This document shows, piece by piece, positions 12,241 to 33,125 of a stretch of DNA of 64,000 nt. Below the pieces are notes generated by a model. That model ran no database searches. It saw only the letters and a program-made list of their open reading frames with translations, and had not been told where the DNA came from. The translations under genes and the position numbers were made by a program. The stretch lies in assembly GCF_054482525.1 (NCBI RefSeq), contig NZ_CM137006.1; one strand, given 5' to 3'. Positions within the stretch are counted from its first letter, which is position 1, and every line of letters starts with the position of its first letter.

Positions 12241-13473
12241 TTATCTCTGCTCGCCCATCATCTCCCGCACCAGCTCCACACAGCGCAGGAAACGGCTGTC
12301 GTAATCGTCCTCTTCAACCCGCACAAATTCGATATTGTTCTCTTCCAGCATCTCCACCAGCAAGTTCTGGAACTCTTTGCGATCCACCGAACTGCCGAGG
12401 CTGCGTAAACCATCCGCCACCCACGGGGTGTTGTTCTCCAGCAGGATCACCAGATCAAAACGGTATTCATCAATCAGCGCCTGCACGAACGGATGCTCCC
12501 GCCCTTCGTACTTTTTGCAGAACGCCTGGGTAGTGACAAAATCAGTGTCGATAAACGCCACTTTATTGGCATATTTCACTGCAAAATCAATGTATTGAGC
12601 GTGTCCCAGCGCGATTTTATCGTAGTCGGAATACTGCAATGCGATCTCATCACCGCCAAGGTGTGAAAAGACATAATCGCGACCATATTCCCATGCACTG
12701 GTAGTGTTGAAGATATTAGCAAGTTTGTTTACCAGGGTTGATTTACCGCTCGACTCGCCGCCAAGGATCGCCACGGTACGCACAAAGAACGGCTTCACTT
12801 CGGTGGGAATATATTCCCAGTAGCGGAACGGGTTTTCGCGGATCTGCGCACCGCTGATACTCATAAAGGTGCGTTTCGGATCGACCAGCACCGTCTCGAT
12901 CCCCAGATGTTCCATATACTGTGGCGCATCGGCTTCTTCCGAGGTGTAGATCAGGTCCGGCTGGATCCCCTTTTCAGCCATAAACTTTTTGATGCCGTTG
13001 CTCCACACATCCCAGCCGTGCGGATACGGCTCCATGCCCTCTTCGTTGAAGGCATGAATACGGATATTTTTCTGATATTTAAAGGTTTGCAATAACCAGC
13101 GCAGACGATCCGGCACCGTGGGCTGCTGCGACATGGCGCTGTCTTCAAACAACGCACGGTCACGGGTATCGTCAAAGCCCATAATGATATGCAGCTCGTC
13201 AACCTGGCTACAGGCGCGCTGGATAAGGTAGATATGTCCGGTATGCAGCGGGTAGAACTTACCGAATACGACACCAATGGTTTTCTTCTGCCGGGGAAAC
13301 TCAAGCCCCAAAAAACGGTGCAACGCCTCCAGCTTTTGCGCGCTGGGGCTTTTAATTTTGGCATTCAGTAACTGGCTTAAATACCCTTTGGTCATACCGC
13401 TGGCATCAGCTACCTGCTGTAGCGTGCAGCCTTGTTGCTTGATGGCAGTTTTCAGGTAATCAAATGACGACAT
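12241..13473 (-). CDS. nadR: NadR: NMN adenylyltransferase / ribosylnicotinamide kinase / transcriptional repressor
   Basis: ORF 12241..13494; K-12-like start MSSFDYLKTAIKQQGCTLQQVADASGMTKGYLSQLLN at codon 8; Walker A GGESSGKST. Confidence 0.92.
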   Translation of the reverse strand: MSSFDYLKTAIKQQGCTLQQVADASGMTKGYLSQLLNAKIKSPSAQKLEALHRFLGLEFPRQKKTIGVVFGKFYPLHTGHIYLIQRACSQVDELHIIMGFDDTRDRALFEDSAMSQQPTVPDRLRWLLQTFKYQKNIRIHAFNEEGMEPYPHGWDVWSNGIKKFMAEKGIQPDLIYTSEEADAPQYMEHLGIETVLVDPKRTFMSISGAQIRENPFRYWEYIPTEVKPFFVRTVAILGGESSGKSTLVNKLANIFNTTSAWEYGRDYVFSHLGGDEIALQYSDYDKIALGHAQYIDFAVKYANKVAFIDTDFVTTQAFCKKYEGREHPFVQALIDEYRFDLVILLENNTPWVADGLRSLGSSVDRKEFQNLLVEMLEENNIEFVRVEEDDYDSRFLRCVELVREMMGEQR

Positions 13474-20193: not shown

Positions 20194-21516
20194 TTATTCG
20201 CTGATACGGCGATAGACAGTTGGTGTGCTTTCCGGTGCTTTATCGGCAAGTTTAATTGCCGCTTTCACCGCTTTCGCCGCTTCCTGCCAGCTGTTTTCGT
20301 CTTTCGCGTGGATAACCGCCAGTGGACGCTGACCGTCTACCTGGTCGCCCAAACGCGCCATATCAGTAAAGCCGACGCTGTAATCGATGGTGTCAGATGC
20401 CTGGCGGCGTCCGCCGCCCATTGCAACCACTGCCATCCCCAGCGCACGGGTATCCATTTCACTGACAAAACCTTCGGTATCAGCATAGACTGCTTTCGTC
20501 AGCATCGCTGTCGGCAGATACTTCGCGTAGTTCTCAACGAAGTCGGTTGGGCCTTTTTGTGCCGCTACCATACGACCAAAGACTTCTGCCGCTTTACCGT
20601 TGTCCAGCACCGCCTGCAATTTCGCGCGCGCTTCGGCGTCATCTTTCGCCAGTTTGCCGGAGATAAGCATCTCTACGCACAGCGCCATCGTGACATCAAA
20701 CAGACGCGGGTTACGATACTCACCCGTCAGGAACTGCACCGCTTCACGAACTTCAACCGCGTTACCTGCACTGGAGGCCAGTACCTGATTCATATCGGTG
20801 AGCAGCGCGGTGGTACGCACGCCCGCGCCGTTAGCTACGCCAACAATCGCTTCGGCAAGGGCTTCAGAAAGTTCGTAGGTCGGCATAAATGCACCGCTAC
20901 CCACTTTCACGTCCATCACCAGCGCATCCAGACCTTCCGCCAGTTTCTTCGCCAGGATCGAGGCAGTGATCAGCGGGATGGAGTCCACGGTTGCGGTAAT
21001 ATCACGGGTCGCGTAGAAACGTTTATCCGCCGGAGCCAGTGAGCTGGTCTGGCCGATAATCGCCACGCCGACGTCTTTAATAATTTCGCGGAAACGGTTG
21101 TCATCCGGGAAAATGTCGAAGCCAGGGATGGATTCCAGTTTGTCGAGCGTACCGCCAGTATGACCGAGGCCGCGACCGGAGATCATCGGAATATAGCCGC
21201 CGCAGGCTGCGACCATCGGCCCCAACATCAGCGAAGTCACATCGCCGACGCCGCCGGTCGAGTGTTTATCAACAATCGGGCCATTCAGATGCAGGCTTTT
21301 CCAGTCGAGAACGGTTCCTGAATCTCGCATCGCCATGGTCAGCGAGACACGCTCAGGCATTGTCATATCGTGGAAGAAAATGGTCATCGCGAGGGCGGCA
21401 ATCTGCCCTTCGGAGATAGTGTTGTCGCGAATACCGTTGATAAAGAAACGAATTTCTTCATCGCTCAGCGCATGACCATCACGTTTTTTACGAATAATTT
21501 CTTGTGCGAGAAACAA
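20194..21516 (-). CDS. deoA: thymidine phosphorylase DeoA (TTG start inferred)
   Basis: ORF 20194..21585; [41 protein letters not shown]...; GGAGG RBS before TTG at codon 24. Confidence 0.9.
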
Positions 21517-21593
21517 GGTAACCTCCCGTGGAAAAGAGACGAGGTAATCGGGGAACCGGATGAGCATCGCTGCGTCATCCGGCAAATCAAGCC

Positions 21594-22373
21594 TTAGTAG
21601 CTGCTGGCGCTCTTACCGTCGCCGTGGCCCAGAGCCTTCAGCAGGCTTGCCAGCAGGCTGGAAGCGCCAAAGCGGTAGTGACGCGCATCGGCCCAGTCAG
21701 CGCCGAACAGTTCATCGGCGATGGCGAGATATTTCTGCGCATCTTCCGCAGTACGCACGCCGCCCGCCGGTTTGAAACCAACGGTTTTTTCTACGCCCAT
21801 ATCACGGATCACTTCCATCATGATGCGCGCGCTTTCCGGCGTCGCGTTCACTGCCACTTTACCGGTAGAGGTTTTGATGAAGTCAGCACCCGCTTTGATG
21901 GAGATTTCAGACGCTTTACGGATCAGCGCTTCGTCTTTCAGTTCGCCGGTTTCGATGATCACTTTCAGCAGTACGTTAGCCGCAGCGCAAGCCTCTTTAC
22001 AGGCTTTCACCAGGTCAAAACCAACCTGCTCGTTACCCGCCATCAGCGCACGGTAAGGGAACACCACGTCAACTTCATCGGCACCGTAGGCGATTGCCGC
22101 ACGGGTTTCTGCCAGCGCGATTTCGATGTCGTCGTTACCGTGTGGGAAGTTGGTTACCGTAGCGATACGGATTTCCGGGGTACCCTGCTCTTTCAGCGTT
22201 TTGCGAGCAATTGGGATAAAGCGAGGATAGATACAGATAGCGGCGGTATTGCCGACCGGAGTTTTGGCCTGATGACACAGAGCAATTACTTTCTCGTCGG
22301 TGTCGTCGTCATTCAGGGTGGTCAGGTCCATCAATTTCAGTGCACGCAGGCTGCTTGCTTTCAGATCAGTCAT
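21594..22373 (-). CDS. deoC: deoxyribose-phosphate aldolase DeoC
   Basis: ORF 21594..22397; [39 protein letters not shown] start at codon 9; AGGAGA RBS. Confidence 0.93.
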
Positions 22374-22416
22374 TTCATTCTCCTGGCTTGTCGCCAATAA
22401 AATTCACCTTGCGAGT

Positions 22417-22433
22417 TTGTTAGTATTCTAACA
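22417..22433. promoter_or_regulatory. DeoR operator O2 (TGTTAGTATTCTAACA) at deoP2; approximate
   Basis: 16-bp near-perfect palindrome ~45 bp upstream of deoC start; matches DeoR consensus TGTTAGAA-TTCTAACA. Confidence 0.7.
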
Positions 22434-22630
22434 TCTACTCCGCAACACACTTCGATATACATCACAATTAAGGAAATCTACTTACAAGTTTGCATCACTG
22501 TAATGCGATCTGGTTCAAATAATTCACTTTCAAATGAATGCGTCAGTGGTGGCAAACGCATCAGGATCAAAGTGAACATCACGAAACTTCTTACAATGGC
22601 GCATCACCTTCGGCATAAAAGGAAAAGAAG

Positions 22631-24181
22631 ATGCCCACTTCTCATGAAAATGCACTGCAACAACGTTGCCAGCAAATTGTCACCAGCCCGGTACTTAGCC
22701 CGGAGCAGAAGCGCCATTTTCTGGCACTGGAAGCAGAAAACAATCTGCCTTATCCGCAGCTTCCTGCCGAAGCCCGCCGCGCGCTGGATGAGGGTGTAAT
22801 CTGCGATATGTTTGAAGGTCATGCGCCGTACAAACCGCGCTATGTCTTACCCGATTACGCCCGTTTTCTGGCGAACGGTTCCGAATGGCTGGAGCTGGAA
22901 GGCGCGAAAGATCTTGATGATGCACTCTCTCTGCTGACCATTCTTTACCACCACGTACCGTCGGTCACATCGATGCCGGTCTACCTGGGGCAACTGGATG
23001 CGTTGTTGCAACCATATGTTAGAATTCTAACACAAGACGAGATCGATATTCGAATAAAACGTTTCTGGCGTTACCTCGACAGAACCCTGCCAGACGCCTT
23101 TATGCACGCCAATATCGGCCCGTCTGATTCGCCCATCACCCGTGCAATCTTACGTGCAGATGCAGAGCTGAAGCAGGTTTCACCGAACCTGACCTTTATC
23201 TACGATCCTGAAATCACCCCTGATGACCTGCTGCTGGAAGTGGCGAAGAACATCTGTGAATGTAGCAAACCGCACATCGCCAACGGTCCGGTGCATGATA
23301 AAATTTTCACAAAAGGGGGCTACGGGATTGTGAGCTGTTACAACTCACTGCCGCTGGCGGGTGGTGGCAGCACGCTGGTACGCCTTAACCTGAAAGCCAT
23401 TGCCGAGCGCAGCGAATCGCTGGATGACTTCTTTGCGCGCACTCTACCGCACTACTGCCAGCAGCAGATCGCCATCATCGATGCGCGGTGTGAATTCCTC
23501 TATCAACAATCACACTTCTTTGAGAATAGCTTCCTGGTGAAAGAAGGGCTGATTAACCCTGAACGTTTTGTGCCAATGTTTGGCATGTATGGGCTGGCGG
23601 AAGCGGTTAACTTGCTGTGTGAGAAAGAAGGGATTGCCGCGCGCTACGGTAAAGAAGCCGCCGCAAATGAAGTGGGTTATCGCATCAGCGCGCAACTGGC
23701 GGAGTTTGTCGCCAATACCCCCGTGAAATATGGCTGGCAAAAACGCGCCATGTTACACGCACAGTCGGGGATAAGTTCCGATATCGGCACCACGCCGGGC
23801 GCACGTTTGCCGTATGGCGATGAGCCAGATCCGATCACCCATCTGCAAACTGTCGCCCCGCATCATGCTTATTATTATTCCGGCATCAGCGACATTCTGA
23901 CGCTCGACGAAACCATCAAACGTAATCCGCAGGCGCTGGTACAGCTTTGCCTCGGTGCCTTTAAAGCCGGAATGCGTGAATTTACCGCCAATGTCAGCGG
24001 TAACGATCTGGTTCGCGTTACTGGTTATATGGTGCGTTTGTCGGATTTAGAAAAATATCGCGCCGAAGGTTCACGTACCAACACCACCTGGCTGGGCGAA
24101 GAAGCAGCACGCAACACTCGTATTCTGGAACGCCAGCCGCGCGTGATAAGCCATGAACAGCAGATGCGCTTTAGTCAGTAA
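22631..24181 (+). CDS. yjjI: YjjI, glycine-radical-enzyme-like protein of unknown function
   Basis: 516 aa [47 protein letters not shown]... Confidence 0.85.
23017..23032. promoter_or_regulatory. DeoR operator O1 (perfect TGTTAGAATTCTAACA) at deoP1, inside the yjjI coding sequence
   Basis: perfect 16-bp palindrome exactly 600 bp upstream of O2; spans yjjI codons 129-134 (YVRILT). Confidence 0.7.
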
Positions 24182-25016
24182 GATTATCCCCTTCTCCTGC
24201 GTTGACGGGCCAGGCAGTCGTCTGGCTCTGTTTTTGCAGGGCTGCAATCTGCGCTGCAAAAACTGTCACAATCCGTGGACGATGGGACGCTGCAATGACT
24301 GCGGGGAGTGCGTGCCACAGTGTCCGCATCAGGCGTTGCAGATTGTTGACGGCAAAGTGGTGTGGAACGCTGTGGTCTGCGAGCAGTGTGATACCTGCCT
24401 GAAGATGTGTCCGCAACATGCCACGCCAATGGCGCAATCCATGAACGTGGACGAGGTGCTTAGTCACGTTCGCAAAGCGGTGCTGTTTATCGAAGGGATA
24501 ACGGTGAGCGGCGGCGAAGCCACGACCCAGCTGCCGTTTGTGATGGCGCTGTTTACTGCCATCAAAAACGATCCGCAATTGTGCCATCTCACCTGTCTGG
24601 TGGACAGTAACGGTATGTTGAGCGAAACCGGCTGGGAAAAATTGCTCCCGGTGTGCGACGGCGCAATGCTCGATCTCAAAGCGTGGGGGAGCGAATGTCA
24701 TCAGCAATTAACCGGACGCGATAATCAGCAGATTAAGCGCAGCATCTGTTTGCTGGCAGAGCGCGGTAAGCTGGCGGAACTGCGTTTGCTGGTAATCCCT
24801 GGCCAGGTGGATTATTTGCAACACATCGAAGAACTGGCGGCGTTTATCAAGGGAGTCGGCGATGTTCCGGTACGCCTGAACGCGTTTCATGCCCACGGCG
24901 TGTATGGCGAGGCGCAAAGCTGGGCGAGCGCCACGCCGGAAGACGTTGAGCCGTTGGCTGATGCGTTACGGGAGCGCGGGGTGAGCCGCTTAATATTCCC
25001 GGCGCTGTATTTGTGA
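24153..25016 (+). CDS. yjjW: YjjW, radical SAM glycyl-radical-enzyme activating protein with extra Cys-rich (ferredoxin-like) region
   Basis: 287 aa ORF; CxxxCxxC-type motif [13 protein letters not shown], second Cys cluster [15 protein letters not shown]...[12 protein letters not shown]; overlaps yjjI 3' end. Confidence 0.8.
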
Positions 25017-33038: not shown

Positions 33039-33125
33039 GCGAAGGTGGCGGAATTGGTAGACGCGCTAGCTTCAGGTGTTAGTGTTCTTACGGACGTGGG
33101 GGTTCAAGTCCCCCCCCTCGCACCA
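33039..33125 (+). tRNA. leuP: tRNA-Leu (CAG), 87 nt; differs from flanking copies by one base in the variable arm (gtgtTctt vs gtgtCctt)
   Basis: second tandem copy after a 28-nt spacer. Confidence 0.93.

Follow-up and report, generated by a model that had tools for sequence, protein, structure and literature searches.

How does a perfect palindrome matching a DeoR operator come to lie inside yjjI, the gene that diverges from deoC, and are its bases held there as a binding site, as codons or as both? The question is raised by a 64,000-nucleotide stretch of E. coli DNA (hereafter the window). Region 22300-23400 matches E. coli PCN033 with 100% identity, and 5423 of 5426 complete E. coli genomes have it. 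Three genes are concerned, two of which, deoC and yjjI, are annotated by RefSeq:

deoC, 21594..22373, minus strand: first gene of deoCABD and the regulated target, with its ATG at 22373
yjjI, 22631..24181, plus strand: open reading frame of 516 amino acids for a YjjI-family glycyl radical enzyme, harbouring the elements assigned below to O1, OE and deoP1
yjjW, 24153..25016, plus strand: radical-SAM activase, the start of which overlaps the final 29 nt of yjjI

The start codons of the divergent yjjI and deoC genes are separated by 257 bp (ATG to ATG) and, with yjjI so close to deoC, the elements O1, OE and deoP1 all fall within the yjjI reading frame. On the far side, the yjjW product matches the Radical_SAM and Fer4_12 domains and further 4Fe–4S domains, so that an activase gene adjoins yjjI; a yjjI-yjjW operon has been predicted (PMC3228777).

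Three operators and two promoters

Five elements describe the regulatory layout. The two -10 elements are read from the sequence and, by this reading, both main operators, O1 and O2, overlap the -10 of their own promoter, in keeping with the published statement that operator and promoter overlap (PMC2222622).

deoO1, 23017..23032, no strand assigned: perfect 16-bp palindrome TGTTAGAATTCTAACA, covering yjjI codons 130-134 and the last base of codon 129
deoO2, 22418..22433, no strand assigned: TGTTAGTATTCTAACA, which on the deo strand is TGTTAGAATACTAACA; one mismatch relative to O1; overlaps the deoP2 -10
deoOE, 23296..23311, no strand assigned: TGATAAAATTTTCACA, the weaker third operator, covering yjjI codons 223-227 and the last base of codon 222
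deoP1 extended -10, 23024..23032, minus strand: TGtTAGAAT on the deo strand, within O1
deoP2 extended -10, 22425..22433, minus strand: TGtTAGAAT on the deo strand, within O2

The preliminary description had placed the palindrome within yjjI codons 129-134 and a near-identical site 45 bp upstream of deoC, with exactly 600 bp between the two, and had likened the pair to the classical two-operator looping arrangement. Both sites are confirmed: O1 is a perfect palindrome, whose first base is the last of codon 129 (the codons at 129-134 being TAT GTT AGA ATT CTA ACA, for Y V R I L T), and O2, at a single mismatch, starts 45 bp before the minus-strand deoC ATG. The spacing needs correcting, since the measured distance is 599 bp, start to start and centre to centre alike, and this is the published value for deoP1 and deoP2, which lie 599 bp apart and are repressed by DeoR via a loop (PMC3334521). 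As for the looping arrangement, the deo operators O1 and O2 are indeed present at their published spacing but the operators number three and not two, OE having been overlooked. OE matches O1 at 12 of 16 positions; its distance is 279 bp to O1 and 878 bp to O2, and the same two distances were reportedly given by Dandanell et al. in 1987. Maximal repression requires three operators, overlapping or upstream of the start sites (PMC2222622), whilst looping reaches up to about 900 bp naturally (PMC4217526).

The identity of the sites can be read against the DeoR-binding palindromes of the 1986-1989 work, which a later paper quotes as TGTTAGAA-TACTAACA or TGTTAGAA-TTCTAACA (PMC5326754). O1 is an exact match to the published TGTTAGAA-TTCTAACA, and O2, 599 bp from O1 in the direction of deoC, is the published operator TGTTAGAA-TACTAACA (PMC5326754). 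A literature text search for the uninterrupted operator 16-mers gave no match; PMC5326754 prints them hyphenated. In E. coli K-12, the same two sites are found at 4616664 and 4617263 (locus L001).

A perfect palindrome would be unremarkable alone, as about one of 16 bp is expected by chance per 64 kb, and the signal lies instead in the repeated copy. With up to three mismatches to O1 allowed, two matches were found where 0.12 ± 0.33 were expected, and none of 100 shuffles gave two. Raising the limit to four mismatches yields only four sites in the 64 kb, three of which (at 22418, 23017 and 23296) fall inside 894 bp.

Two other sequences in the window bear on this count. The second perfect 16-bp palindrome of the window, TGGGAATATATTCCCA at 12804-12819, is unrelated to the DeoR site. 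The sole other site within four mismatches of the DeoR operator, TGTTAGTGTTCTTACG at 33077-33092, has no terminal CA and probably matches by chance.

The palindrome is thus very probably deoO1, the main upstream operator of deoCABD, which overlaps the deoP1 -10 inside yjjI and takes part in DeoR looping between O1, O2 and OE. A DeoR operator inside yjjI is already known biology, and the regulation is textbook repression by looping: O1-O2-OE is among the founding examples of repression by DNA looping, and its rediscovery adds nothing on regulation.

In mechanistic terms, multimeric DeoR would bind O1 together with O2, which lies at deoP2 599 bp downstream, and OE, which lies 279 bp upstream, and the DNA between the operators would form single or double loops, by which P1 and P2 would both be shut. 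Deoxyribose-5-phosphate would then free the operators of DeoR, and P1 transcripts would have to pass antisense through the first 387 nt of yjjI and its promoter region to get to deoC. Selection therefore acts twice on the operator bases, through their contacts with DeoR and RNA polymerase and as the codons for Y V R I L T. For DeoR binding and P1 initiation at O1 we draw on the reviews cited here, and the primary papers of 1982-1989 reportedly describe both. That deoxyribose-5-phosphate is the inducer and that P2 is also under CRP and CytR are stated in several papers (among them PMC3334521, PMC4217526 and PMC5326754), one of which summarises DeoR and uses the deoC promoter as a ChIP-qPCR positive control (PMC5326754).

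As deoP2 is built like deoP1, with the -10 inside the operator, the two promoters are likewise 599 bp apart (PMC3334521). Together with the literature, the extended -10 in O1 leads us to infer that deoP1 transcription starts near 23017, inside yjjI, which defines one further feature:

deoP1 leader segment, 22631..23017, minus strand: 387 nt, predicted from where the P1 -10 lies; it would be antisense to yjjI codons 1-129

A consensus promoter scan called no minus-strand promoter at O1, a miss that the poor -35 explains. We rejected this miss as evidence against deoP1, because the element is an extended -10. The start-site supplements of PMC3415461 and PMC6131387 hold no deoC or yjjI entries.

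Relatives of the locus and a possible tie to yjjI-yjjW

A scan of one genome per species gave 80 yjjI loci and 75 distinct yjjI genes with deoC as the divergent neighbour, the latter drawn from about 20 genera that include Escherichia, Salmonella, Citrobacter, Enterobacter, Lelliottia, Kosakonia, Kluyvera, Trabulsiella, Atlantibacter, Hafnia and Edwardsiella. Among the deoC-adjacent genes, the distance from O1 to OE is constant at 279 bp (93 codons). The distance from O1 to O2 ranges from 567 to 612 bp across Enterobacteriaceae genera, with 601 bp the commonest value, and the variation among genera means that a spacing of exactly 600 bp is not a conserved property. In Hafnia and Edwardsiella, weaker O2-like sites lie 626 and 675 bp away.

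The sites are not a fixed companion of the gene order. At the distant locus L084, deoC adjoins yjjI, yet neither O1 nor OE is present, so that adjacency to deoC does not by itself dictate the operators and the synteny is older than the in-gene operators. The prediction that deoC adjacency implies the operators failed at this locus.

The surroundings of yjjI at the distant loci deserve a separate remark. In distant Enterobacterales, yjjI-yjjW is flanked by deoCAB on one side and, on the other, by a gene for a nucleoside transporter of the nupC family (L082:5910-7187 and L084:5927-7204), after which comes a tatD-like gene. From this order of deoCAB, yjjIW and the nupC-like gene one may suspect that YjjI is connected with nucleoside metabolism.

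The in-gene operators and P1 might also, or even mainly, regulate yjjI-yjjW, whether through DeoR acting as a roadblock or through colliding or antisense P1 transcription, although we judge this unlikely. The geometry would permit it, since the first 700 nt of yjjI contain a promoter as well as two operators; moreover, the divergent deoC-yjjI arrangement is kept from Escherichia to Edwardsiella, and the distant loci place yjjIW between the deo genes and the nupC-like gene. On the other hand, L084 has the synteny without the operators, and published work ties yjjI to anaerobic and nitrate-responsive genes and not to DeoR (PMC3228777). Among the papers that ranked in our literature searches, none mentions yjjI together with DeoR or deoC. 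A stronger form of the proposal, that the position of deoP1, O1 and OE inside yjjI represents functional coupling to yjjIW (by DeoR block and opposing P1 transcription) and not an accident of packing, seems to us slightly more doubtful still. Were it true, the glycyl radical enzyme YjjI would be tied to deoxynucleoside availability and might act in anaerobic nucleoside or deoxyribose metabolism.

The relatives also differ from E. coli in the deoC leader. Below the O2-like site, this leader is 170-220 nt long in Hafnia, Edwardsiella and further Enterobacterales, against about 45 nt in E. coli, and it has a conserved core of ~70-90 nt that reads GCGGUGAGA.GGAUCUCA, then a variable hairpin, then AUCUUCA.GGAACCAAGUCCGCUCGCCAAC. 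It occurs at the following loci:

deoC leader loci: L072:2537-2780, L076:2528-2720, L082:3098-3300, L083:52-262 and L084:3097-3300, all on the minus strand
deoC leader loci from metagenomes: L086-L121, no strand assigned

The metagenomic loci come from a scan with 25 specified bases, which returned 36 leader loci, and in 33 of these a deoC homologue starts 27-114 nt downstream. All 24 distinct leader cores fold with the closing helix GGUGAG/CUCGCC, and the hairpin is fixed in position but lineage-specific in sequence. As an alternative, the conserved 3' strand of the leader could base-pair with the ribosome-binding region GUUGGAGAG. The E. coli window lacks the element, and a search of Rfam 15 at E<=1 gave no match either in 21500-24300 or in five related loci. 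We regard the leader as a candidate cis-regulatory RNA, either riboswitch-like or a target of CsrA, the latter option being suggested by its repeated GGA motifs.

Selection on the operator bases within yjjI

In nearly all of the 75 deoC-adjacent orthologues, O1 is invariant or has one mismatch; four have two mismatches. The codons that spell the operator, and the proline codon before them, are distributed as follows among the 75 genes:

Codon 128 (Pro): CCA 31, CCG 28, CCT 11, CCC 5, so that all four proline codons are in use
Codon 130: GTT in 73 of 75
Codon 131: AGA 53, AAA 16, GGA 4, AGG 1, ATA 1
Codon 132: ATT in 75 of 75
Codon 133: CTA in 73 of 75
Codon 134: ACA in 75 of 75

When third-position entropy is taken over windows of six codons, the window at codon 129 (O1) ranks lowest of 511, at 0.28 against a median of 7.12, and that at codon 222 (OE) second lowest in yjjI, ranks that are descriptive and not independent tests because the 75 sequences share a phylogeny. 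At the nucleotide level, with 16-nt windows and with ranks to be read in the same way, the four lowest islands of yjjI are OE (the lowest of all), 23051-23070, O1 and the overlap with the start of yjjW. At codon 222 itself, agreement with the window rises from 19% of genes at position 1 to 100% at position 3. Across the 75 genes, the borders of conservation coincide with the edges of the 16-bp operators. AGA131 is one of two AGA codons in yjjI and CTA133 one of two CTA codons, both of them rare. O1 is unchanged in the E. coli alleles sampled; even the most divergent of them, with four differences across the 44 nt around O1, has none within the operator. The operator had been supposed to be constrained both as protein and as a binding site, and this is borne out: the O1 codons show the least third-position variation in yjjI, and the rare AGA and CTA are kept. 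That the strongest synonymous constraint in yjjI falls, base for base, on the operators is a tidy quantification, though an expected one.

The fourth island, at the yjjI/yjjW overlap (24152-24181), is likewise low in synonymous variation. This is to be expected where two reading frames and a translation start share the same bases.

The remaining island lies a short distance upstream of deoP1:

Block upstream of deoP1, 23051..23070, minus strand: CGCCAGAAACGTTTTATTCG on the deo strand, at about -34 to -53, corresponding to yjjI codons 141-147 (CGAATAAAACGTTTCTGGCG)

The block has the third-lowest nucleotide entropy in yjjI, and its synonymous conservation is on a par with that of the operators. 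Rare codons are retained in it, CGA in 62 and ATA in 72 of the 75 genes, and the CGA at codon 141 is the only one in yjjI. By its position and conservation, the block is probably the -35 and UP-like region of deoP1. ModE is said to have been linked to the deo operon by Tao et al. in 2005. By eye, however, the block matches TATAT-N7-TAYAT at no more than 7 of 10 positions, and we rejected a ModE site here as unsupported.

Could the palindrome be kept by the YjjI protein and codon usage alone, its likeness to a DeoR operator being coincidental and without function? We consider this very improbable. Part of the O1 sequence is admittedly fixed by the protein, as Y129, V130, L133 and T134 are conserved family-wide (PYVGxLT). 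Several observations nevertheless run against it: the rare AGA and CTA are frozen synonymously whilst the flanking codons vary freely; the limits of conservation are the exact 16-bp borders; and residue 131 varies (R, K, G or I) whilst the DNA there stays within one mismatch of the operator. Identity to the published operator (PMC5326754) adds to these, as does Proteus, which shows the amino-acid motif without the DNA sequence. In four Proteus species, yjjI is present without a nearby deoC, and P-Y-V-G-(E/N/S)-L-T is encoded there by codons that vary freely, with 6-8 mismatches at O1 and 11-12 at OE.

The same comparison suggests how the operator came about. More distant homologues show PYVGxL(T/S), which marks it as the ancestral YjjI motif, and the operator seems to derive from the conserved Y-V and L-T codons through synonymous choices together with changes at the tolerant residues 131-132. 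The YVGxLT motif appears to have been adjusted to create the site by replacement of G131 with R or K and of x132 with I. Hafnia and Edwardsiella carry an intermediate, GTT GGA ATT (C/T)TA ACA. O1-like and OE-like sequences co-occur, in that homologues bearing 'ILT' at 132-134 bear 'D(K/N)IFT' at 223-227 as well.

All of this presupposes that codons 129-134 are translated, and O1 is inside a true coding region. The profile TIGR04040 matches yjjI with 787.7 bits (cut-off 498.3), residues 11-504 aligning with positions 1-497 of 497, and PF11230 (YjjI-like) with 732.5 bits, residues 22-504 aligning with the full profile (1-485 of 485). Over codons 1-128 of the 75 orthologues, entropy averages 0.39, 0.28 and 1.25 at positions 1, 2 and 3, which is the pattern of the remaining yjjI. 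The homologues of Proteus, Providencia and Moellerella (65-72% identity) align from the N-terminus, and a Shine–Dalgarno-like AAGGA precedes the ATG at 22631.

A translation start downstream of the palindrome, which would leave the operator intergenic and free of coding constraint, is accordingly refuted at the level of sequence and most improbable: the database entries that might favour it, the shortest annotated YjjI variants of 402 aa (from M115) and 391 aa (from residue 125), both start upstream of codon 129, the two family models align end to end from residues 11 and 22, and the 128 N-terminal codons are conserved as protein as far as Proteus and Providencia, with variation biased to the third position. 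The preliminary description had named such a start as the finding that would count against it; the family models, codons 1-128 and the annotated starts all put translation upstream of the operator.

Public annotation of YjjI is inconsistent in other respects. N-terminally shortened calls occur among P0111, P0112 and P0114, and a 574-aa entry (from the set P0004, P0111, P0112 and P0114), encoded on a 2.9-kb contig, joins DeoC-like sequence to YjjI (PF01791 + PF11230). This fusion is probably an artefact of assembly or gene calling.

Comparison with known systems

Our literature search found no discussion of the overlap between the operators and yjjI, though it is visible in any annotated genome browser. 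To our knowledge, the original deo work predates genome annotation, and the location of O1 and OE in yjjI apparently went undescribed there; the papers on the deoCABD system are, we take it, those of Valentin-Hansen et al. 1982 and 1986, Dandanell and Hammer 1985, Dandanell et al. 1987 and Amouyal et al. 1989. What is added here is modest, namely a view across genera of a promoter and two operators written into the reading frame of a neighbour. The locus offers a natural example to modellers of overlapping codes and to anyone recoding, deleting or codon-optimising yjjI, as deletion or recoding of this gene would remove deoP1, O1 and OE and thereby disturb deo regulation.

The E. coli deoCABD region, with O1, O2, OE, deoP1 and deoP2, is the same system: its operators are identical and lie 599 and 279 bp apart, its main operators overlap a TAGAAT -10, deoC is directly downstream, and the DNA is without difference. 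Beyond deo, operators within genes are familiar from lac operator O2 in lacZ and gal OI in galE, auxiliary sites that cooperate by looping and are doubly constrained. These two may be regarded as the nearest analogues of an in-gene operator. Each, however, is inside the first gene of its own operon and is not known to overlap a promoter, whereas in the deo case an unrelated, divergent neighbour houses a full promoter together with one main and one auxiliary operator. The internal operators of galS and deoR are likewise transcription-factor sites in a coding region (PMC3334521) but, unlike O1 and OE, they are autoregulatory and lie within the regulator's own gene.
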